64,000 bases of DNA. It comes from a virus (taxonomy: Duplodnaviria; Caudoviricetes). A program made the translations under genes and the position numbers. The stretch is from positions 3,496 through 67,495 of IMG/VR virus record IMGVR_UViG_2902699553_000002. One strand, written 5' to 3'. Shown here one piece after another: positions 3,236 through 39,118 of this stretch; position 1 is the first letter of the stretch; each line of letters opens with the position of its first letter. The notes under the pieces were generated by a model that saw nothing but the letters and a program-made list of their open reading frames with translations, was not told where the DNA came from and ran no database searches.

Positions 3236-4696
3236 TCAGGCCCCGGCAAGCCGCAAAATCTCGCGCACGAATTTGGCATCCGATTCCTTACGAGTCGGCT
3301 CGATCAATTGCCGCTCAGACCAATCATCGGTAATGGTCGCAGCCTCTTCCCGGATTAGCGCCAGTTCGTCATCGCTGAGATCCGCCCGCTCCAGCACTTC
3401 CGCCCTTGATGGTTGCGCTGCTGCGGGATGGGTGTAGAGCGGTATATCCCCTGATTCCTGTTGCTTAAAGATCACGCCTGTTTCTCCACGCGCGACATTC
3501 GCCAGATCAAACTGAGTCGTCCAACCCACAGGCACATTCTCCTCGGCTGACGCTATTGGAGCGGGAGGTTTGATTCCGGCGCTGGTGGCGATTTGCTCTA
3601 TCTCGGCGAACTGGTCTTCGTCCAGAATACCTGCTAGGCGCGCCATAATCCGCTGTATGGCTTGCGGCGCTCCAATCGCAGCATCTGTTTGCGCAGCATC
3701 CAAAAGCTCTACAGCTTTGACGAAAGCCATATTCATTTTGAAGTCGTGGCCATGGTCGTCAACAGGACTTGATTTCCTGATCTGATTGACCAGATCGATC
3801 AAGACGTCCTCTGTGCGACAGGCTCGCTCCTCCAAAGCGATAGCGCGCGCAATAAAATCTGTTGGCTCTGCCGCTACTGGTACAGCCTTCTGTGCGAGAG
3901 CGGCTTGCCAGATCGTGAATCGGTCTTTGCACGCATCTACATCGTCACCGTACCAACCGAACTTGTTTTTGTGCCATGCGACAAACCGCGTCCGCTCATC
4001 GCCATCTTGCGGAACGGTGGTGGCTTGAGTGCCTGCGTACAACGGCGTATCCCGAAACAGCGTTTCCTTTCGCTGAATGCCGGGGGTGCGGTCAGGCCCA
4101 GCAGTTTCATCGTCTGGAAGCATGTTACGCAGTTCATGACCATTCACATAGGCCACCGCTGCGGCCTTGTTGGATGCGAGAGCGGCTTGCCATACATGGA
4201 AGCCGAATTCCTCTGCCCACTGATCAAAGTGTTGAAAATAGATTGGACCTTTGAAGGCACTTTTCCACTTTCTGTAAGCAGTCCATTGCACTTGTAGCTC
4301 GTCACCATCTTTCGGAATGGGGGCGGCTTGGGTGCCTGCGCGCCAGTTGGCACATCCCTCGCGAACGCGCGGAAGATCGCCGCCGCATACGCATCGGTCG
4401 CCTTCCGAGCAGTGGCCCGCGCCCCCATCACCAGAATGGTCAGATTGGGCGACTCGAGGCGCTGGCACGCCAGAACTCTCGTCTATGTGAACCAGAATGC
4501 GCTCTGCGGTATCTCGGCTGATTCCATAGCCGTTGCACTCACACTCAACTGCGTGAATAACTGCATCCACTCGGTGCTTAGCCCCGGCATGAGACGTGCG
4601 GCGCAATTCGAACAAATCGCCAGCCATCGCTGGATAGCCGTTTTTCTTAAGCAATCCGATTGCAACGGAAAGCGCGATCTCTTGATCTTCAGTCAT
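3236..4696 (-). CDS. Large mosaic hypothetical early protein
   Basis: 486 aa with repeated blocks AGTQA..P.DGDE..WQAALA and ..PLY. Confidence 0.65.
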   Translation of the reverse strand: MTEDQEIALSVAIGLLKKNGYPAMAGDLFELRRTSHAGAKHRVDAVIHAVECECNGYGISRDTAERILVHIDESSGVPAPRVAQSDHSGDGGAGHCSEGDRCVCGGDLPRVREGCANWRAGTQAAPIPKDGDELQVQWTAYRKWKSAFKGPIYFQHFDQWAEEFGFHVWQAALASNKAAAVAYVNGHELRNMLPDDETAGPDRTPGIQRKETLFRDTPLYAGTQATTVPQDGDERTRFVAWHKNKFGWYGDDVDACKDRFTIWQAALAQKAVPVAAEPTDFIARAIALEERACRTEDVLIDLVNQIRKSSPVDDHGHDFKMNMAFVKAVELLDAAQTDAAIGAPQAIQRIMARLAGILDEDQFAEIEQIATSAGIKPPAPIASAEENVPVGWTTQFDLANVARGETGVIFKQQESGDIPLYTHPAAAQPSRAEVLERADLSDDELALIREEAATITDDWSERQLIEPTRKESDAKFVREILRLAGA

Positions 4697-4725
4697 GGTT
4701 ACTCCAATGAGGCGGGGCTAGGCGG

Positions 4726-4890
4726 TCAGACGCGCGCAGCAGTGCGGATGTTTTCGTACACGTCCGCCGCACGCTCACGCTCTTTGCCGACCGGGCAGGC
4801 GCAGAAGTACGCATATGCGGCTTTCTCGGCACCGCGAAGCTTGTCGATTGCGGCGTTGCGCAACTCAATCAGCTTTTGATCCTCGTCCAT
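4726..4890 (-). CDS. Small hypothetical protein (54 aa, not in ORF track)
   Basis: MDEDQKLIELRNAAIDKLRG...; purine-rich SD upstream. Confidence 0.5.
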   Translation of the reverse strand: MDEDQKLIELRNAAIDKLRGAEKAAYAYFCACPVGKERERAADVYENIRTAARV

Positions 4891-5006
4891 CTCTCATCTC
4901 CAATAATCCAGCATCGCCGATACCACGAGCAGCATGGCGATACGGTTGTTTGATGCTCTCAAAAGCGGGGCCGCAGCCCCTTGCCGCGCCGAGGCGCTGT
5001 TGGTCG

Positions 5007-5711
5007 TTACTCCGGTTCACTAACCGGCTGCGTGAGTTCGTACGGAACCGGTCTCGGAAACCATGTCGGCAACTGTTCGAACGAATCGCGCATCTTCATG
5101 ATTCCGCCGAACACTTCCAGATCGCCCAGGCCACCAACCACGAACATGAGCGGACTGTCGGCGTCTTTCGTAAAGAACCGGATGCTGCCGAAGTGCTGGC
5201 CGATGGTCAGGGCGTCTTTCAGATAAGCCGGATTGATCGCGCCGGAGATGCCCTCGTTATAGCCGCGCGCCGCTGCGACATTCTCGATACGAGGAAAATT
5301 GCCCTCGACCAGCGCATTGCCTGGCTGGATGAACTGGGCCTGCCCATTTTCATCGTTGACCATCGCGGAACCGTTCGACATCACATCAAGCGTGCTCTTC
5401 GCGTTGCACGTCTTGAGCCCGTCCTTCTTGATGGACACGATCACCTCTTTCTCTGCGTAACCGTGTTGATCGCGGATCACGACATACCGATGGCCGTCCG
5501 TAGCGACGATCATTACGGTGTTGTCTTCGAGTGGGCGGACATTGACGCCATTGAGGTAATAGCGGATATCGTTCTGCGCCATGAACGGAAAGGCCACCTT
5601 GACCGCCATTGCATTGATGCGCGCGATCATGTGTGGCGCTTCCTTCGATTCAGGCTCGGCAGGCGCCACGCCGTCGATTGAAAGCTGCTCTTGTTCTGTC
5701 GTTGCGTTCAT
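5007..5711 (-). CDS. DNA polymerase III beta-clamp-like protein (short form)
   Basis: DIRYYLNGV...VATDGHR...GNFP and INPAYLKDAL match DnaN middle/C-terminal domains. Confidence 0.75.
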   Translation of the reverse strand: MNATTEQEQLSIDGVAPAEPESKEAPHMIARINAMAVKVAFPFMAQNDIRYYLNGVNVRPLEDNTVMIVATDGHRYVVIRDQHGYAEKEVIVSIKKDGLKTCNAKSTLDVMSNGSAMVNDENGQAQFIQPGNALVEGNFPRIENVAAARGYNEGISGAINPAYLKDALTIGQHFGSIRFFTKDADSPLMFVVGGLGDLEVFGGIMKMRDSFEQLPTWFPRPVPYELTQPVSEPE

Positions 5712-5869: not shown

Positions 5870-6634
5870 TTATGCAGCTTCAGCGAACGTAAGCCGTTTG
5901 TACGCAGCGCGAGCCATGCGCACATCATTGGCGCAGTACTCGGCCACTTCGGCGATACGGCCGGCAGCGACCATATCCCATACCTTGGAGCCGTCCACAC
6001 CGTCAGTCTTGCCGGGAATGCCCAGCGCGCCGCAGAGCCGGTCAAGCCCCACTGATCCCTTGAACCCGGCCCATCGCGTCATGGTGTCGAAAACGTAATC
6101 GTCCCAGGGGCGTGCGTGAAACGGGATGATTGACGGCGGTTTGATGCCCAACACGACCGCACGCTGGAAGATGAAGCGCAGATCAAATTCGGTCACATAA
6201 TGGCCGATAAACACCGGGCGACGGTCGGAACTTGGCGTGTACACATCCTTGATCGCGTCGAATGCGGATCGCAGCACCTTGGCTTCGTCATGCGCCCAGT
6301 CTTCGGAATAGAATGTGACCGGCTCGGCGTCGTCCAGTGCAATGCCGATCACGGCGATTTGACCGGATCCGCCATCGAATGAGGTCTTGCGCCACTGTTC
6401 TTGCGCGGCTTCCTCGAGCTTTTCATCGCGGAAGCGTTCTACCCACAATTCGAGCGCCTTATCCTTCGATGTGTACTTGATCTCGCTCGCGTCGGTCATG
6501 CCCAGATCGGCGCAGGCCTTTTCCTTCGTCAGCGTGGAGGGGGCCTTGAAGTTCTCGCGCAGATCGGCGCGAATCGCTTCGAGCACGGCGGGGTTTGTCG
6601 AGGGTATGGTCTCGATGTCCAGAGTCACATTCAT
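5870..6634 (-). CDS. 3'-5' exonuclease (DEDD/PolB-like RNase H fold)
   Basis: LDIETIP, GHY..FDLRFI, FDTM, EYCANDV exonuclease motifs. Confidence 0.8.
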   Translation of the reverse strand: MNVTLDIETIPSTNPAVLEAIRADLRENFKAPSTLTKEKACADLGMTDASEIKYTSKDKALELWVERFRDEKLEEAAQEQWRKTSFDGGSGQIAVIGIALDDAEPVTFYSEDWAHDEAKVLRSAFDAIKDVYTPSSDRRPVFIGHYVTEFDLRFIFQRAVVLGIKPPSIIPFHARPWDDYVFDTMTRWAGFKGSVGLDRLCGALGIPGKTDGVDGSKVWDMVAAGRIAEVAEYCANDVRMARAAYKRLTFAEAA

Positions 6635-6644
6635 TATTGCCTCC

Positions 6645-7313
6645 TTAAATGATTGACCAGGCTGCGCGGGCGTATGCCGGAGCAAAAGGCACATCGTCGT
6701 CGTAAGCCCCGCCGTCGTGCGGACCGGTGTCGTAATCCTGGTGCGATGCCGTGGCGGGGCGCTTCTTCATCGGGCGGTCAGCGAGTTGCGCAACCCGTAA
6801 CGCCAGCGCTTCGGGCTTTGTCTTGCCATTCAGAATTTCAGCCGCCACCAGCTCCGTGCCAGCTTCGAACACGCCGACGAGCTTTGCGGTCCATGCCGTC
6901 TGACCTTGATTCTTGCGGCTTTCCTCTTCGGTCTTCTGAAGCAGGAAGCCGATTGGCTTGTTGGCCAGCTCAGGAAACACCTGGCCCTGCTCGGTGTATT
7001 CCTGCTTCGTATCCTTGTTCCAGCGCTTCACCGGCCCCGGAACAGGCTTGATGCCGCGCAGCTTCAGGCACGTCATGAGAGCCATCAGCAGGTCATAGCC
7101 AGACAGCTTTTCGCCGTCCTTCTTCATCGTATAGACGTACTGGCGAGTCTCCCGGCCATCGTTGGCTTGCAGGTTAAGGACAACGCCGCGCGTCCCCGTC
7201 TGTGCCTCGATATCCTCTGCATAGAGAATCTTGCCGATGTACTTGCCAGTTTCGTTGAGCCACTTGCCGGTGAAGTCGGCATTCATCGCGGCTTGCTTGT
7301 CGAGTTGATACAT
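6645..7313 (-). CDS. Phage single-stranded DNA-binding protein (DUF669-like)
   Basis: Acidic tail YDDDVPF; between Sak4-like ATPase and exonuclease. Confidence 0.65.
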   Translation of the reverse strand: MYQLDKQAAMNADFTGKWLNETGKYIGKILYAEDIEAQTGTRGVVLNLQANDGRETRQYVYTMKKDGEKLSGYDLLMALMTCLKLRGIKPVPGPVKRWNKDTKQEYTEQGQVFPELANKPIGFLLQKTEEESRKNQGQTAWTAKLVGVFEAGTELVAAEILNGKTKPEALALRVAQLADRPMKKRPATASHQDYDTGPHDGGAYDDDVPFAPAYARAAWSII

Positions 7314-31018: not shown

Positions 31019-32056
31019 GGTGATCCCATGGCCCGTTCCGCAACTTTCCAGTCTGGCTCATTTGGCCGAGACCCGATGGAGGCGTATGCCGCGAAACAGG
31101 CCAATGAGCACCGTCAGGCGCAGGAGCCGTGGAGGCGGGATGTAAAAAACAGCCCTCTCCCCGAATATCCACGTCGATGGGAAAACGAACCCACCCCACC
31201 CCACAAGCCACTAGAACAATGGCTGGCAGAAGAAGGGCAACCGCGAAAGAGAAGTGCGGCATGGCTGGCGTTAGAGGAATTGTTTAAATGAGCGGAATGA
31301 TTCTCGACCATGCTGATTACTCCGATCTGGAAGAGTTCGGCCGCATCACGATCGACCACACCTCGCGCGGCGTTGAAATCACCGTGGACGGCTTCCAGTT
31401 CGCCAGTGGTGGCACGTGCCGCGAGCACAACACCAAGGCGCTCGCATGGGCGCGTGACGTGCTGGCAGCGAAGATCTCAGCCAATGCGCTCGTCCCTGGC
31501 GGCTTCATCATCTCGATTGCCGATATGGATCAGGATGAGCTCGATGCGGAACGGGCCAAGAAATGAACCTCGAAGCCCAGCAACTGATCGACAGCCTCGA
31601 GGCGGACATCCAGCGCATGAGGATTGACGAGGCCCTGAAGGCGTCGCTTGTGGCGCGGCTGGATGCTCTCCGAAGGATGGTGCTGTGATGACCGACGCTG
31701 AGAAGATTGCCGAGCTTGAGCGCCGGGTCGATCGCCTTAAAAAGGGCATCCATCGCAATGGCGAGGTGCCTACCCCACCGATTACCTGGCCAATCATGCC
31801 AACGATGGGCGCTAAGCCGCGCTGTTCTAAATGCAATATTGAGTTGGGCTCCCCTATTGGGTACGTCTGCCCGAATTTCGGCAGTTGCCCTACTAGGCTG
31901 GCTGGCTTCAGTTGCTCCACTGCGGGCGCACCGGCCTAAATCATGATCCCCATCGCCGAATACCTCGCCGCCTGCGCTGCTGCAATAGCGCAATTCCACC
32001 TTGCCGCGGCCAATGCCTGGGTGGCTTGGGGTGATTGGCTGCTGCCGGATTGATTT

Positions 32057-32153
32057 GCCGTCACGCGTAGGACGGCTACGCAGAGCACACCCGGGCGGCT
32101 CTATTCTCCTCCTCGGCCCTCACCGAGTTCGCTGCTTCGGCGGCGCTTTTATT
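32057..32153 (+). ncRNA. Candidate anti-SD small RNA
   Basis: Hairpins flanking TTCTCCTCCT, then a UUCG terminator hairpin with T-tract. Confidence 0.35.
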
Positions 32154-32219
32154 CGCGCCACGCGCTAATTGAGCAGAAAGTGGCGACCCGCCGCTCTGGC
32201 CGAAGTTGGAACTGCTCAA

Positions 32220-32870
32220 ATGGCAAAGAAAACTCCGGAATTCGCTAGAACGCGCCCTGCTCCGCCAGAAATCCTCTTCGACGAGAGCAACTGGACCAAG
32301 CACTTCGTGCCGGCCGATGGCCTCGCCGAGTGGGTAGCCAAGACCTTGATGGACGAATCCTCACCGCTCTATAACGAGGATCACAAACACCTCCACTACG
32401 CCGACATCGAATACCTCTGGGCTGCAGTCGAGAACAAACGCCAGATGCGCCGGATAGTCGGGCAGTGCGAGGAAGTCACCTTCCGTTGTGGAGCGTGGCA
32501 GAAAGGTCGTCAGGAACAGCAGATGAAGGAATGGTTCGGGCGAGTCCCGGCTTACCTGATTACGCTTGACGCCAATTACGCGCGGGAGTGCTCGGACATT
32601 GAGTTCTGTTCCCTTGTCGAGCATGAGCTTTACCACATCGCACAGGAGCGGGATGCGTTCGACGCCCCTGCTTTCACCCGCGACGGACTCCCGAAGATCG
32701 GCATCCAATCTCACGACGTCGAGGAATTTGTCGGCATCGTCCGCAGGTATGGCGTGGGTGCTGCAGCGGGCAAAACGGCCGCGCTCGTTGATGCTTCAAA
32801 GCGTGCGCCCGAGGTCGGAAATGTGGATATTGCGCGGATGTGCGGGACTTGCTTATTGCGCGCCGCGTAG
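32220..32870 (+). CDS. Phage putative metallopeptidase
   Basis: EHELYH and HDVEEF..IVRRYG. Confidence 0.8.
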   Translation: MAKKTPEFARTRPAPPEILFDESNWTKHFVPADGLAEWVAKTLMDESSPLYNEDHKHLHYADIEYLWAAVENKRQMRRIVGQCEEVTFRCGAWQKGRQEQQMKEWFGRVPAYLITLDANYARECSDIEFCSLVEHELYHIAQERDAFDAPAFTRDGLPKIGIQSHDVEEFVGIVRRYGVGAAAGKTAALVDASKRAPEVGNVDIARMCGTCLLRAA

Positions 32871-32900
32871 TTACACCCTAGTTATACGAGATTTCACATT

Positions 32901-33413
32901 ATGGCAACACTCACGGATGACGTGAAAACGTTCATCGTGCAGGCGTTGGCCTGCTTTGACACACCCAACCAGGTGTCCATCGCCGTGAAAGAGGAATTCG
33001 GGCTGGATGTGCCCCGCTCTCACGTGCAGGCGTATGACCCGTCCAAAGCGTTAGCTAAGAGTCTTGGCAAGAAATGGCGCGAGTTATTCGCAGCCACACG
33101 CAAGGCGTTTATCGAAGATCAGGCAACTATCCCGATTGCTCATCAGAACTTCCGGTTGCGCGCCCTGAACAGGATGTACGACAAGGCAGCATCGGGCGGC
33201 AATATCGCACTGGCTGCCCAGCTAATTGAGCAGGCCGCCAAGGAGGCTGGGGATGCCTTCACCAACAAACACAAACTGGAACACACCGGAAAGGACGGCG
33301 GCCCGATCAAGAGTGCAGTCACGCCGGTCGATCTAGACGATGCGACCGATGAAGAACTCGATGTCCTTGAGCGCGTCCTTGCTAGGCGTCAGTCTGGCGC
33401 AGATCAAGGCTGA
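32901..33413 (+). CDS. terS: Terminase small subunit (DUF2280)
   Basis: [21 protein letters not shown]; EQAAKE.G; upstream of terL. Confidence 0.85.
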
Positions 33414-34899
33414 GAAGCTTAGGCGTCTGCGCGTCAGGCTCGAAGCCGATCACCTGGAGTTCACGAAACACTTCTTCAGGATCCGCCAGGGCATCGACTT
33501 CCGCGTCAACTGGCACCACGTCTACATCGCGGATACGCTTGAGAAGGTGATCCGCGGCGAGATCAAGAACGTCGTGTTCAACGTTTCGCCGGGTTCGTCA
33601 AAGACCGAAGAGGTGGTGATTAACTTCATCGCCCGCGGCCTGGCATTGAATGCCCGTGCCCGCTTTCTGCATATCTCGTATTCGGATGACCTCGCGGTTC
33701 TGAACTCCGAAACGGCGCGTGAAGTTGTCCGCTCCGAGGAATATCAGGAACTGTGGCCGCGCAAGATCGCGACCGATGCAGACTCAAAGAAGCGCTGGAA
33801 CGTCGAGGACAACGGGAAAAAGGCTGGCGGCGTCTATGCCACCTCCCTGGGTGGGCAGATTACGGGGTTCCGTGCCGGCCACATGGCTGAAGGCTGGCAA
33901 GGCGCCATCCTGATCGATGACCCGCTCAAGGTCGAGGACGCTTACAGCAAGACTAATCGCGACAAGGCAAACCGCAAGCTCATCTCAACGGTCAAGAGCC
34001 GGCGGGCCAATCCCGACACGCCGATCGTTGTGATCATGCAGCGCCTGGCTGAGGAAGACCCGACGGGCTTCATCAAGTCGGGTGGCGTGCCGGGGGAATG
34101 GACGTTCATCGAGATTCCGGCGCTTATCACGGATGAGTATGTCGCAAAGCTCCCAGAGCATATCCGACCCCTGGTTGATAGCTCGGAGCGCGATGAGGAT
34201 GGGCGGTTTAGTTATTGGCCGTATAAGGAGCCGCTGCACGAGTTGCTGGCCATGGAGAAGGCCGACAAGTATGTGTTTAGCGGGCAGTACATGCAGAAGC
34301 CCTCACCTCTCGGTGGCGGCATCCTGCGCGGCGAAGCGTTCAAGCGGTATGTCCAGCTTCCCAAGATCCAGCACATCAAGATTTACGCCGATACGGCCCA
34401 GAAAACGGCCGAACGGAACGACTACAGCGTATTCCAGTGCTGGGGCATCGGTTACGACAACCATGCCTATCTGATCGACCAGATCCGCGGGAAATGGACG
34501 GCCCCGCAGTTGCGGCAAAAGGCGATCGACTTCTGGCACAAGCACAACGTAAGCGGGAAAGATGCTCCGTCGCTGCGCAAGATGATGGTCGAGGATAAAT
34601 CGAGCGGCACTGGGCTTATTCAGGACATCCAGGCCGCCGGCGGAATTCCGGTTGAGGGCATCGAGCGCAACAAGGACAAGCTGACGCGCGTCATGGACGT
34701 GGTGAGTTTCATCGACTCGGGACAGGTATGGGTTCCGGCTGAGGCGCCCTGGGTATCGGACTTTATCAACGAGTGCGAATCTTTCACCCCCGACGATACG
34801 CACGCGCACGACGACCAGATCGATCCAATGGTGGACGCAATCAATGACCTGCTGGGCGGCCGACGTGGCATAGCCATGTGGGAGAGGCTCGGCAAATGA
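33361..34899 (+). CDS. terL: Terminase large subunit
   Basis: [39 protein letters not shown]. Confidence 0.92.
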
Positions 34900-34964
34900 C
34901 TCAAAAACGAAGCGTCAAAGGCGTAGCCCAGCGCGCGAGCCGGGAAGAAAAGAGCGTAAAATGA
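34896..34964 (+). pseudogene. Orphaned original 5' end of the portal gene
   Basis: [22 protein letters not shown]; shares 16 identical residues with the present portal N-terminus. Confidence 0.85.
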
Positions 34965-35033
34965 GCGAAGCCCCGGACGGCTGGAACCGTTCGAGGCTTC
35001 TAACCACAACCTGATCATGCGAGGATCACGGCT

Positions 35034-35729
35034 ATGGCTGACGCCATTGTAGTCCAATTTGCGCTTGTCTCCCGCGAGGAGGCCAAAGCGCGAGGCCTGA
35101 GCAAATACTTCACGGGCGAACCGTGCCAGAACGGGCATGTTGACCAACGCTATGTGAGCAATAAACGCTGCTGCGGATGCAAAGTCGGTTCCGATGCAAG
35201 GCATAGAGACCGCTATCCCGGCAAGAACGAGGCGCAGTGCAAGGCCTACTACGAAAAGAACAAAACCCGCCATCTTGAAGTGCAGAAGGCCTATCGAGAG
35301 GCCAACAAGGCGGCGCTCGCTGCATACGATAAGGCTCGCAATGATGCTAATCGTGAGGCGTTGCGGGAGTATCACAAAAGCTATTACGCCTCAAACAAAG
35401 AGGGATTCATAGCGCGTGCCAAACAGTGGAAGCAAGTCAACCCATTGAAGGTAAAGGTAAATGGTGCTAACCGCAGAGCAAAGAAGCGTGCTGCTGGCGG
35501 GAGATACACAGCGCGGCAAATCGAAGTCCTGCATAAGGCGCAGAAAGGCAAGTGTGTGAATTGCCGAAACAGCATCAAATACGAGTTCCATATTGACCAC
35601 GTAACGCCGATTGCGCTGGGCGGCTCCAACGGCATCGAGAATATTCAACTTCTCTGCCCTGATTGCAACCTGCGCAAAGGCGCTCAAGATCCGCTCGAAT
35701 GGGCACAGAAGAACGGAAGATTATTGTGA
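35034..35729 (+). CDS. HNH homing endonuclease
   Basis: YFTGEPC.NGH N-domain; CVNC..HIDHVTP..GGSN..ENIQLLCPDCN..K. Confidence 0.9.
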   Translation: MADAIVVQFALVSREEAKARGLSKYFTGEPCQNGHVDQRYVSNKRCCGCKVGSDARHRDRYPGKNEAQCKAYYEKNKTRHLEVQKAYREANKAALAAYDKARNDANREALREYHKSYYASNKEGFIARAKQWKQVNPLKVKVNGANRRAKKRAAGGRYTARQIEVLHKAQKGKCVNCRNSIKYEFHIDHVTPIALGGSNGIENIQLLCPDCNLRKGAQDPLEWAQKNGRLL

Positions 35730-37171
35730 CCAAACGTAGTGTGAAAGGAGTGGCGCAAAGAGCGTCAAGAGAGGAGAAAAAGCAGATCGCTGGCGCCACT
35801 CAGGATTCATTCAATAACTTTGCCGCCCGCTTAGGAATGGGTGCAGATAACTTGATGGCTCAGTCAAGTTATGGATTTAACCCAATATCCAGAACTCGCA
35901 CCCTGCTCGAATGGGTGCACCGCGGCTCATGGCTTGGTGGCGTTGCGGTAGACGTCGTTGCCGACGACATGACGCGTGCCGGCGTGGACCTGAAGGGCCA
36001 GTTGCATCCCGATCAGGTTGAGCAGATCCAGGAAAGCGCTAATGGCTTCGGCATCTGGAACGCCATCAACGATACAGTCAAGTGGTCACGGCTGTACGGT
36101 GGCTGCCTGGCGTTCATGCTGATCGATGGGCAGGACCCGTCCACGCCGTTGCGGCTGAACACGATCCGCAAGGGTCAGTTTCGCGGCCTGCTCGTACTTG
36201 ACCGCTGGATGGTCGAGCCTAGCCTGCAGGATCTGGTGACGGAGATGGGCCCGGAACTGGGCTTGCCGAAGTTCTACACGATCACCGCCGATTCCCCTGC
36301 TCTGCCGCTCAAGAAGATTCACCATTCCCGCTGCCTGCGTCTTGAAGGTATTCGCCTGCCCTACTGGCAGCGCGTGATGGAGAACATGTGGGGCATCTCG
36401 GTGCTCGAGCGTCTGTACGACCGCATGATCGCGTTCGACAGTGCAAGTACCGGTGCCGCCCAGCTCGCTTACAAATCGTACCTGCGCACGTTCAAGGTTG
36501 AAAACCTGCGTGAAATCGCGGCTGCCGGCGGCCCAGCATTACAGGGGCTGACGCAGTACGTGAACATGATGGCCCGGTTCCAGTCGATCGAAGGCATCAC
36601 GATGATCGACATGAACGATGAGTTCGTGGCCGATACGCACAGTGCCTTCAGTGGGCTTGATTCGCTCATCCGGCAACTGGGAGAACAGCTTTCCGGAGCA
36701 TTGCAGATTCCCTTGGTGCGCCTGTTCGGCCAGTCCCCCGGCGGGATTGGCAACGATGGCGAGTCAGCTCTCCGAACCTATTACGATAACGTCAAGAGCC
36801 AGCAGAGCGCCCGTTTGGGTGTTCCCGTCACGCGCATCTATCGCGCGATCGCCGCATCCGAAGGCATCAAACTGCCCGATGGATTCAAGGTCGAGTTCCG
36901 CTCGCTGTGGCAGTTGACTGACGTCGAGAAAGCAGATATTGCCGGCAAGGTCGCCGAGGCTGTCACGAAGACCGACGGCGCCGGCATCACCACGCCGAAG
37001 ATGGCACTCGAAGAATTGCGCATCAGCAGCCATACGACCGGTATCTTCGGTTCGATCACGGACGAGGATGTAGCCAAGGCCGCAGACGTGCCGAGCGCGC
37101 CGATGCCGGAAATGCCGGGTGACGACAAGGACGATGATGCAATCCCTGGCGAATCCTCGAAAGACGAGTGA
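35726..37171 (+). CDS. Portal protein (DUF1073-type)
   Basis: VDVVADDMTR, WSRLYGG, IHHSR, WGISVL, IPLVRLFGQSPGG, YYD. Confidence 0.88.
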   Translation: MTKRSVKGVAQRASREEKKQIAGATQDSFNNFAARLGMGADNLMAQSSYGFNPISRTRTLLEWVHRGSWLGGVAVDVVADDMTRAGVDLKGQLHPDQVEQIQESANGFGIWNAINDTVKWSRLYGGCLAFMLIDGQDPSTPLRLNTIRKGQFRGLLVLDRWMVEPSLQDLVTEMGPELGLPKFYTITADSPALPLKKIHHSRCLRLEGIRLPYWQRVMENMWGISVLERLYDRMIAFDSASTGAAQLAYKSYLRTFKVENLREIAAAGGPALQGLTQYVNMMARFQSIEGITMIDMNDEFVADTHSAFSGLDSLIRQLGEQLSGALQIPLVRLFGQSPGGIGNDGESALRTYYDNVKSQQSARLGVPVTRIYRAIAASEGIKLPDGFKVEFRSLWQLTDVEKADIAGKVAEAVTKTDGAGITTPKMALEELRISSHTTGIFGSITDEDVAKAADVPSAPMPEMPGDDKDDDAIPGESSKDE

Positions 37172-37937
37172 CCGCAGCGTCGCCTCATTCATCAAGAAGA
37201 AATCCGATGAGCGATTCCTTAATGGACGTAAGGCTGAGCGGTCCTATGCCCGTCAACTGAAAGGCGTCGCGCGGCAGATCAATGCCATCGTCAAGGCATT
37301 CGCTCCCGACGGCAATGTCAATGACCTGAACTCGATGCAGTCGACGCTCACCCGGTACGCAGAAATCCTGAGGCCGTGGGCGCGCGCCGTCGGCTGGGGC
37401 ATGATCAGCGAAGTGTCTCGGCGGGATGAGGCAGCATGGTTCGCTCATGGCAATGAGATGGGCCGGCTGCTGCGTGAGGAAATCCGCACTGCACCGACGG
37501 GCGACATGCTGCGCGAGATTCTTGAGCGGCAGGTAACGCTTATCACGAGTCTTCCAACCGAAGCCGGCCAGCGCGTCCACAGGCTCGCGACTGAAAGCCT
37601 GATCAACAGTTCTCGTGCCAGTGAGATCGCCGCCGAAATTATGAGATCGGGAGATGTCGCTGAGTCACGTGCCGTCTTAATAGCCAGGACCGAAACGGCC
37701 CGGTGCGCTGCTGGCCTCACACAATCCCGCGCGCAGTTCGTTGGCTCGACGCATTACATCTGGCACACAGCCACGGACAGCGATGTTCGCCCTGGCCACA
37801 AAGCCATGAACGGCAAGATATTCCGCTGGGATACGCCGCCCAAAGTCGAAGAGAACGGCCGCTCCATGCTCCACGGTCCCGGAGAAATCTGGAATTGCCG
37901 GTGCTGGGCGGAACCGATTATTCCGGACGAACTATGA
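37137..37937 (+). CDS. Head morphogenesis protein (SPP1 gp7/Mu gpF)
   Basis: IARTET, Y.W.T..DSDVRPGH, PGEIWNCRC. Confidence 0.88.
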   Translation: MQSLANPRKTSDRSVASFIKKKSDERFLNGRKAERSYARQLKGVARQINAIVKAFAPDGNVNDLNSMQSTLTRYAEILRPWARAVGWGMISEVSRRDEAAWFAHGNEMGRLLREEIRTAPTGDMLREILERQVTLITSLPTEAGQRVHRLATESLINSSRASEIAAEIMRSGDVAESRAVLIARTETARCAAGLTQSRAQFVGSTHYIWHTATDSDVRPGHKAMNGKIFRWDTPPKVEENGRSMLHGPGEIWNCRCWAEPIIPDEL

Positions 37938-38157
37938 ACACAATTTTGACATGTGTCGTGATTGTTATGGCGCTCGCCACCGGCTATCGGCTCGGTCGCC
38001 GTGGCATTTTCATTTCATTCGACGACATCGAAGTTGAGGCGCCGACGCGCGAACAGGCAGAACGCCTTCTTGACATCGCGATTGGCATAAAGAATCGCGG
38101 CAACTGATTCAGTTTCAACCCGGCATCCGCCGGCCACCCTCCCCAGGAGATTCGCAA

Positions 38158-38763
38158 ATGAAGTTCACCCATCTGGCCGTAATCGGCGCAGCGCTGCTGG
38201 CGATGGCCGGGAGTGCCTTTGCTCAAGCGTTCAACACTGCAACCGCGGTTTTTCCGGTCACCCAGCGCACGTACGAGGCGACCATCGTCGGGCTCGTGCC
38301 AGCGGCCTCGGCCACTGATCTGCTGACCCTCACTGGCGTTGCTGGTCACATCGTTCGCGTCACTCGCGCGGAATGCACGGGTACAGCAACTGCTGTAGGT
38401 GCGGCCAACCTCATCGCGCTGGTTCGCAGCACGGCGAATACGGGTGGTACGTCGACTACCCCTGCGGCTATTCCTGCTGATCCGAGCGATTCGGCGGCTG
38501 GCGCAACAGTCAAGGCCTACACCGCCAATCCTACAGTCGGCACATCCGTCGGCCCGGTGCGCGCCGCAGTGCTGGTGCTGACTCCGACTGCCACGACCAC
38601 GATCGCAGAAGACCCGGTCAACTGGACCTTCGGCAACAACGCCGGTACTCGCGCGGGGATTGTGCTGCGCAGCGCAAGCCAGGTGTTTTCGCTCAACGGC
38701 AACGGCGCCTCATTCCCTGCTGGCACCGCGCTCAACTGCTCGATCGAGTGGACCGAGCTGTAA
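38158..38763 (+). CDS. Signal-peptide-bearing beta-rich protein
   Basis: MKFTHLAVIGAALLAMAGSAFA signal; AGGAG SD; terminator hairpin after the stop. Confidence 0.7.
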   Translation: MKFTHLAVIGAALLAMAGSAFAQAFNTATAVFPVTQRTYEATIVGLVPAASATDLLTLTGVAGHIVRVTRAECTGTATAVGAANLIALVRSTANTGGTSTTPAAIPADPSDSAAGATVKAYTANPTVGTSVGPVRAAVLVLTPTATTTIAEDPVNWTFGNNAGTRAGIVLRSASQVFSLNGNGASFPAGTALNCSIEWTEL

Positions 38764-38818
38764 CCGCAACCGCTTCGCACTAAGCCCCGCTTCGGCGGGG
38801 TTTTTCATTTGAGGCTCT

Positions 38819-39118
38819 ATGGCACTCGCCGCAATCAATCCGACAGGCCAGGCAGCGCTGACGGCTGGCACGGTTTCGTCCAACGTCGCCATTCCCGCGA
38901 CGGGCACGCCTACGCAAGTGCTGGTGCAGAACCTCGGCAGCCGGGCTGCGTTCGTGTTGCTGGGCTCATCGAATGCTGTCGCGGCAACAGTTGCCGATGG
39001 CACGCCCATTCTGCCCTGCCCCAATCCCGGTGTCGTGCTGACGCTCAGCACCAACACATTCATCGCGGCCATCACTGCCGATGGTTCGACGCCTCTGCGC
39101 GTCACCGCAGGAACCTGA
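38819..39118 (+). CDS. Small beta-rich virion-like protein
   Basis: 99 aa Thr/Ala/Gly-rich in the head module. Confidence 0.6.
   Translation: MALAAINPTGQAALTAGTVSSNVAIPATGTPTQVLVQNLGSRAAFVLLGSSNAVAATVADGTPILPCPNPGVVLTLSTNTFIAAITADGSTPLRVTAGT

Follow-up and report, generated by a model that had tools for sequence, protein, structure and literature searches.

A probable homing cassette with a built-in replacement gene start in a prophage portal gene

In fungal mitochondria, the elements known as mORFs (in Glomus atp6, atp9, cox2 and nad3) consist of an endonuclease open reading frame (ORF) inserted near the 3' end of a gene together with a foreign C-terminal segment; the native C-terminus stays downstream as a duplicate, while the inserted copy becomes the working end of the gene (PMC3630166). 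For atp6 of Glomus, nucleotide identity amounts to 91% between the native remnant and a relative and to 63.5% between the two copies, the protein being nearly unchanged (PMC3630166); the same report cites atp6 of Allomyces macrogynus as the first example. Partial C-terminal duplications adjoining endonuclease ORFs are also described in PMC6279837. Here we present a phage locus that invites comparison with these elements. It lies in a stretch of 64,000 nucleotides (nt) of tailed-virus DNA (IMG/VR record IMGVR_UViG_2902699553_000002, positions 3,496 to 67,495; hereafter the window), in which an HNH endonuclease gene stands between the large terminase gene (terL) and the portal gene, and the start of the portal gene is found on both sides of it.

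In phages, intron-less homing beside an essential gene has been described for SegF, SegG and MobE of the T4-like group, whose genes are present in some genomes and absent from others, with co-conversion of flanking markers (PMC2988022, PMC2790892). Insertion within an essential gene is described for mobE of Aeh1 in nrdA and for mobA of T4 with gene 60, where AT-rich foreign sequence keeps the product working (PMC3045599, PMC2988022). In addition, a GVE2-like HNH gene is reported between terL and portal in Skunavirus, where it is thought to act in packaging (PMC12724721).

Specifically, we propose, with a probability of roughly 0.75, that window positions 34954-35896 constitute a mobile cassette of about 943 nt, made of a leader, the HNH gene and 171 nt of replacement sequence derived from a diverged allele of the portal, which entered the portal 5' end and left the first 58 native nt behind as a stub. 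A homing cassette with a built-in replacement gene start is probably real and active at this locus, as judged from the DNA and its relatives. The features to which we refer are the following.

33340-34899, + strand: terL, large terminase gene (Pfam PF17289, 6.9e-17; phrog_38)
34896-34964, + strand: stub, an ORF of 22 codons, native-like over nt 1-58, that is to 34953
34954-35033, + strand: putative cassette leader, which holds the stub stop codon and lies within the stretch that is 97.6% identical in a contig of sample X2
35034-35729, + strand: free-standing HNH endonuclease gene, 231 amino acids (PF01844, 3.6e-13)
35726-37171, + strand: portal ORF, intact, 481 codons (PF06381, 5.7e-96, residues 65-415)
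35726-35896, + strand: putative replacement portal 5' end, codons 1-57, 171 nt, GTG start, cassette-borne
35740-35823, + strand: hypervariable patch inside the replacement 5' end, codons 6-33, 84 nt
35897-37171, + strand: resident portal body, in frame with the replacement 5' end

The terL stop codon overlaps the stub ATG as ATGA (34896-34899), and the last 11 nt of the stub are foreign sequence ending in TGA. From the stub stop to the HNH ATG there are 69 nt free of ORFs, and within the leader a GAGGA Shine-Dalgarno-like motif (35021-35025) lies 8 nt 5' of that ATG. The HNH gene, which has a start, a stop and a Shine-Dalgarno-like motif of its own, ends in a TGA that overlaps the portal GTG start at 35726 as GTGA. 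The portal ORF begins (M)TKRSVKGVAQRASREEKKQI and is preceded by a weak Shine-Dalgarno-like GGAAG; by homology, we take the GTG at 35726 as the probable portal start. The replacement stops just short of the conserved portal domain (from residue 65), and the N-terminus is the most variable part of this portal family. No promoter-like site was found in the leader, the promoter and terminator scan giving nothing above chance, and direct repeats within 34700-36100 were short and at chance level only. On all these points (stub, overlaps, codon differences between the two starts, portal start after the HNH gene) the sequence statements of the first-pass annotation hold.

The stub retains the native start, its Shine-Dalgarno context and the ATGA coupling, which is what would be expected if it were a real first exon, the portal starting at 34896 and the HNH gene lying in a self-splicing intron or intein or being bypassed. 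This explanation is hardly credible. No Rfam family was found at E<=1 within 34300-36500, and the 69 ORF-free nt between the stub stop and the HNH ATG are too few for the core of a group I intron. An intein is not compatible with the locus, because stop codons separate the frames. Moreover, the N-terminus is encoded in full a second time 3' of the HNH gene, from a start codon of its own.

A search of public contigs with the portal protein recovered five loci with portals about 91% identical to that of the window, corresponding to three distinct sequences: L003; L004, which equals L029 over 600 nt; and L036, which is identical to L043. In L003, L004/L029 and L036/L043 alike, terL is directly joined to the portal gene, without an HNH gene, by an ATGA in L003 and by TAG, three bases and ATG in L004/L029 and L036/L043. 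The terL and portal proteins of L003 are 95% and 91% identical to those of the window. In addition, tblastn with the HNH protein gave a hit in 0 of 22 related loci, and in two Burkholderia phages (47% and 44% portal identity) terL is likewise followed by portal.

If an HNH gene invaded the portal, the stub should match the portal DNA of HNH-free relatives better than the recoded copy does, as the first-pass annotation had predicted, and this is the result obtained. The stub agrees with the native portal starts at 49/58 (L003), 56/58 (L004) and 50/58 (L036) nt, while the portal start after the HNH gene agrees at 40/55, 38/55 and 41/55 nt, respectively. No HNH-free sequence carrying the recoded codons was found in the protein and family-genome searches. 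The stub is therefore a native 5' end, as had been proposed, although its native-like part ends at 34953 (nt 58), rather than with the last letter of codon 19 or 20.

The two edges of the foreign segment can be placed on the same comparisons. On the left, native identity stops at 34953, and on the right the last replacement-specific base is 35896. In 60-nt windows, identity to the relatives is 43-67% up to about 35902 and then mostly 75-97%, dropping again at the variable 3' end of the gene; the windows crossing 35873-35932 step from 55-67% to 73-88%. Codons 2-57 share 56-61% of nucleotides with the three relatives and 41-44 of 54-56 residues, whereas codons 58-460 share 84-85% of nucleotides and 373-377 of 403 residues (93%) with L003, L004 and L036. 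Base composition changes at the same place: the G+C content at third codon positions (GC3) is 0.46 in the replacement, 0.61 in the HNH gene and 0.75 in the rest of the portal, while the same 171 nt have values of 0.70-0.81 in the three relatives. The AT-rich codons noted earlier to about 35895 are thereby confirmed and run to 35896.

As for the leader, its origin as a decayed portal fragment could not be established. Under lenient scoring it is weakly similar to nt 32-83 of its own replacement and to nt 139-205 of the native portal (p ~0.01 each); these similarities vanish under stricter scoring, the alignments overlap, and for two of the three relatives they are not the best match over the whole gene.

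To what extent the cassette moves as a unit is indicated by contigs of four runs from four studies (X2, X6, X7 and X8), which were placed on window positions 32000-39000 with a threshold of 80% identity for upstream matching. An assembly artefact can be dismissed as the source of the terL-stub-HNH-portal arrangement, because contigs of four other studies cover its junctions. The evidence for mobility comes mostly from one long contig, with which the shorter ones agree. This X2 contig of 6509 nt matches the window at 34904-35739, over stub, leader and HNH gene, with 20 mismatches in 836 nt (97.6% identity); the next 84 nt, 35740-35823, are of the same length but diverged; and the portal body, 35824-37098, has 191 mismatches in 1275 nt (85%). 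The 1970 nt of the contig that lie 5' of 34904 do not match the window terL at 80% identity or more.

The shorter contigs give a comparable picture. The X8 contig of 188 nt, like that of X2, begins to match the window at 34904 and continues to 35088 with 2 mismatches, while 9-13 mismatches per 51-91 nt are seen in the X8 contigs that cover the end of terL. In X7, a 151-nt contig covers 35742-35890 with 1 mismatch, and contigs just downstream have 5 mismatches in 38 nt (35897-35934) and 16 in 86 nt (35906-35991), that is 81-87% identity. The 324-nt contig of X6 spans 35774-36097 with 28 mismatches.

The protein searches of public assemblies returned a related pair. P0001 is an HNH protein 97% identical to that of the window (7 differences in 231 residues), the runner-up being 44% identical, and P0075 is the portal with the most window-like N-terminus (86% over 70 residues). 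The two very likely lie on one contig, since the longest contig is of 13,183 nt for both. The body of P0075 (residues 58-440) agrees with the window portal at 355 of 383 residues and with both L003 and L004 at 365 of 383, and its tail is of the L004 type (45/46, versus 27/41 for the window type).

All together, a cassette diverged by about 2% occupies the same place in two portal/terminase backgrounds diverged by about 15%, each of which has HNH-free relatives. Judged from these alignments, the cassette appears younger than its flanks, and the pattern of two backgrounds is that expected of a putative homing element. The earlier proposal that the HNH gene was inserted together with a replacement portal 5' end is thus supported by the better conservation of the segment and by its second background, but the replacement is not simply a synonymous recoding.

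The same comparisons bear on whether the hybrid gene still works. The GTG start and the weakness of its Shine-Dalgarno-like GGAAG would suit a decaying prophage, in which the insertion broke the portal and the hybrid is no longer functional. We regard this as quite improbable, given that the ORF of 481 codons is intact with a full PF06381 domain (5.7e-96), the replacement still encodes the N-terminal peptide and motifs of native portals, the same hybrid has turned up in other samples and against a second background, and the neighbouring genes are the Pfam parts expected of a tailed prophage.

Two further observations concern the terL side of the locus. The stub is nearest to the L004-type start (56/58) and not to that of L003 (49/58), although the adjoining terL is of the L003 type (95% amino acid identity); possibly the stub moved together with the cassette, or else the terL-portal junction of the phage is mosaic. 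Separately, a terL contig in X2 is 96% identical to the window over 33082-34250; 433 unlike letters then stand where the window has 424, and identity beyond them is 81%. Window positions 34250-34675 are a replaced patch inside terL among these relatives.

The replacement could have arisen in two ways, and the first-pass annotation favoured one of them. The stub and the portal start have 16 residues in common, KRSVKGVAQRASREEK (codons 4-19), of which 3 use the same codon and 13 a different one (including CGC/AGA, AGC/TCA and CGG/AGA). A duplicate of the 5' end of the resident gene, or a captured one reshaped afterwards, may have been selected to escape the nuclease and to block recombination between stub and copy. 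In addition to the residue identity of codons 4-19, such adaptive recoding could account for a GC3 of the replacement that is lower even than that of the HNH gene, for a longest exact match of only 8 nt between stub and replacement, and for the patch at 35740-35823, which is less than 80% identical between cassette copies that are otherwise 97.6% identical and includes the conservative swaps K7R, R12K and K19R. Nevertheless, we judge adaptive recoding unlikely. Synonymous change describes codons 4-19 and not the replacement as a whole, in which 12-13 of 54-56 aligned residues (codons 2-57) differ from the natives. Where residues are identical, the same codon is used in 27-34% of cases, against 41% expected from independent draws from the codon usage of the phage and the HNH gene; codon divergence beyond chance is not significant, the 13 of 16 differing codons giving p ~0.06 (binomial, expected same-codon frequency 0.41). 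On these figures, codon divergence appears saturated and is not demonstrably above random. Moreover, switches between the serine boxes (AGC to TCA, AGT to TCA) need non-synonymous intermediates, which suggests long divergence.

Several residue states of the replacement that differ from the natives are also found in distant natural portals: MAQSSYGFNPIS and NFAAR(L/M)G (NFAARLG in the window) recur, for example, in P0079 and P0094. Capture of a foreign portal allele together with the nuclease explains this recurrence more easily than drift after duplication. We therefore infer that the replacement is a foreign allele carried with the nuclease, whose divergence would be useful to the element.

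The HNH protein consists of a Cys-rich N-terminal module and a C-terminal HNH domain. PF01844 spans residues 174-217, where CxxC ... CxxC and HIDH are visible and the Cys pairs are intact; other matches are PF14279 (3.4e-11), PF02945 (4.9e-5), phrog_1035 (1.8e-21) and phrog_1081 (residues 11-59). The gene is present in the genome as a single copy and encodes the sole HNH domain of the prophage. Its relatives in the phage collection (101 records, all below 60% identity) adjoin varied genes, as is typical of free-standing homing genes; among 101 related genomes the top non-self match is 36% identical, and no match was obtained in IMG/VR. Neither the phage collection nor the related genomes provided a second example with a context suitable for comparison. 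In L053, which belongs to the same genus, two HNH genes at 4347-5036 and 6571-7104 (- strand), encoding 229 and 177 amino acids and 33-36% identical to the window HNH, lie within a prophage structural operon, and one of them overlaps both neighbours by start and stop codons.

The location of the gene between terL and portal also raises the question of whether its product is a packaging accessory of the terminase, of the HK97 gp74, GVE2 or Skunavirus HrdP type, the stub being an accident of its acquisition. The position matches that of the GVE2-like HNH gene found in 89 of 89 Skunavirus genomes (PMC12724721), and a weak match to the GVE2 HNH structure 5h0m was obtained (E = 0.014). Such a role is very unlikely here. 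L003, with a terL 95% identical to that of the window, has no HNH gene at the junction, and none of the 22 related loci carries one. The window protein, the only HNH domain of its prophage, has 231 residues and a Cys-rich N-terminal module, versus 130 residues for 5h0m. In addition, the surrounding packaging genes are far less conserved than the cassette.

We propose the following course of events for a homing cassette that replaces the gene start. When the phage co-infects or recombines with an HNH-free relative, the nuclease would cut the native portal 5' region. The likely target is native nt ~50-170, because the stub lacks this part and the replacement has a diverged version of it; the best candidates within it would be the native-conserved stretch over the insertion point (nt ~49-70) and a conserved block at nt ~112-166. 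Neither candidate stretch is in the stub, and both are changed at many positions of the replacement. The break would be repaired from the cassette-bearing genome, the right homology being the conserved portal body from nt 172 and the left homology the stub, plus the end of terL where this is homologous. The left homology must include the stub, given that in the X2 background nothing 5' of 34904 resembles the window. Through repair, the recipient would acquire the leader, the HNH gene and the replacement 5' end, and the stub would form anew. The stub would thus be more than debris, namely a left flank needed and regenerated by every homing event.

The divergence of the replacement would make the working copy unlike the native target and so confer immunity on the carrier. 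Similarly, as stub and replacement share at most 8 nt of exact match, recombination between the repeats should not easily remove the element. The native ATGA coupling of terL and portal is mirrored by the GTGA coupling of HNH and portal, and on account of this overlap portal translation probably depends on that of the HNH gene.

Several points weigh against this interpretation. We infer the cut site, cleavage, immunity and homing from the letters of the DNA and their comparison. The donor lineage, namely a full portal with a replacement-type 5' end and no HNH gene, was not found in protein or DNA searches: no donor was among the 26 hits obtained with the N-terminal 70 residues of the window portal or the 104 obtained with residues 1-80 of P0075, and after P0075 the top N-terminal hits were of native type (76-80% identity). 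At the DNA level, searching the cassette against 396 scored family genomes (5 being unscored) and a wider stretch against 213 genus genomes returned fragments of 28-52 nt only, and no donor was found among the public contigs that match the portal protein. The contigs of X7 and X8 measure 151-230 nt, so that the pieces assigned to the flanks may come from other phages of the same sample. The occurrence of one cassette in two backgrounds could also result from a single ancient insertion whose flanking modules later recombined, with no nuclease-driven homing involved. The distribution of mismatches in the second cassette copy is taken from contig-comparison tables only, and the gene caller placed the start of the P0075 portal at an upstream ATG. 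Finally, simple hitchhiking does not predict a diverged patch of 84 nt.

This patch, at 35740-35823, comprises the part homologous to the stub and the next 14 codons. P0075 and the window differ there by 9 residues, all within codons 7-33, while none of codons 34-57 differs. The patch could derive from recombination with a third allele, or from selection on the segment that would confer immunity and stability. Following the latter possibility, we tentatively consider that the replacement might be an evolving immunity and stability module of the element, with a patch that changes about 10 times faster than the rest of the cassette and with selection favouring copies unlike the native target and unlike the stub. 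Coupling of the essential portal to the HNH frame through GTGA might then serve as an addiction device, making it costly to lose or inactivate the nuclease gene. On this speculative view, the patch would take in, besides the stub-homologous part, the neighbouring likely target.

As regards the wider context, the prophage sits in a large contig of an 8.0-Mb genome of the Burkholderia family, and it appears complete. Its parts identified by Pfam include peptidase S24 (repressor-type), replication protein O, DnaB helicase, DUF2280, terL and portal, and, in addition, a Mu F-like head protein, DUF2213 (scaffold-like), the major capsid protein, DUF3383 and a protein with a transglycosylase SLT domain; the DUF2280 protein is probably the small terminase. 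No tRNA was found in the window. Taken as its longest ORF from the first possible start (GTG), the Mu F-like head gene overlaps the portal end by 53 nt in another frame (37119-37171). Among native-type portal relatives, P0076 (676 amino acids) has a fused C-terminal PF03496, and other relatives have PF18823 or PF00293 extensions.

By comparing the cassette with the phage systems outlined above, it appears that it differs from each of them. Free-standing homing genes of T4-like phages lie between genes, are not known to leave a duplicated gene end and owe their immunity to a few polymorphisms, whereas the window element is inside the coding region and brings a substitute of 171 nt. Aeh1 mobE and T4 mobA split their host gene into two polypeptides that reassemble; in the window a single full-length protein would be restored, the displaced piece being left as the stub. 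With HK97 gp74, GVE2 and HrdP the window protein shares the HNH fold and the terL-portal position, but those proteins are small and conserved throughout their groups, while close relatives lack the window HNH, which has about double the length of the GVE2 protein. In the titles and abstract openings searched, no phage precedent was found for a nuclease with a duplicated and replaced gene start, although one may still exist in print.

Homing endonucleases are known to persist safely in essential genes within introns or inteins, by splitting the gene, or at positions just outside it. The window locus would be a further solution in phage, in which a nuclease within a coding region carries a substitute start and the discarded native start is kept as a homology arm. 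The parallel with the mORFs suggests a general route by which selfish nucleases may give rise to hybrid genes and to mosaic boundaries within the structural modules of viruses. In addition, the locus offers a compact system to address the position of the HNH cut, the divergence needed for immunity, and the role of translational coupling against the decay of a selfish gene.

The closest counterpart is found in the mORFs. As in those elements, a gene end is duplicated around an endonuclease ORF and the native copy is closer to relatives, the figures corresponding to those of the mORF being 84-97% identity to relatives for the stub and 69-75% for the copy. In the window, the inserted end is in frame with the gene body, giving an intact ORF of 481 codons, and would be the expressed one. 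In contrast, mORFs affect the 3' end, with LAGLIDADG or GIY-YIG enzymes in mitochondria, whereas the window element affects the 5' end of a phage structural gene with an HNH enzyme, and replacement of a 5' end, unlike that of a 3' end, requires a new start codon and translational coupling. In conclusion, our comparison indicates that the window cassette, although it would act in the manner of an mORF, falls outside that family.

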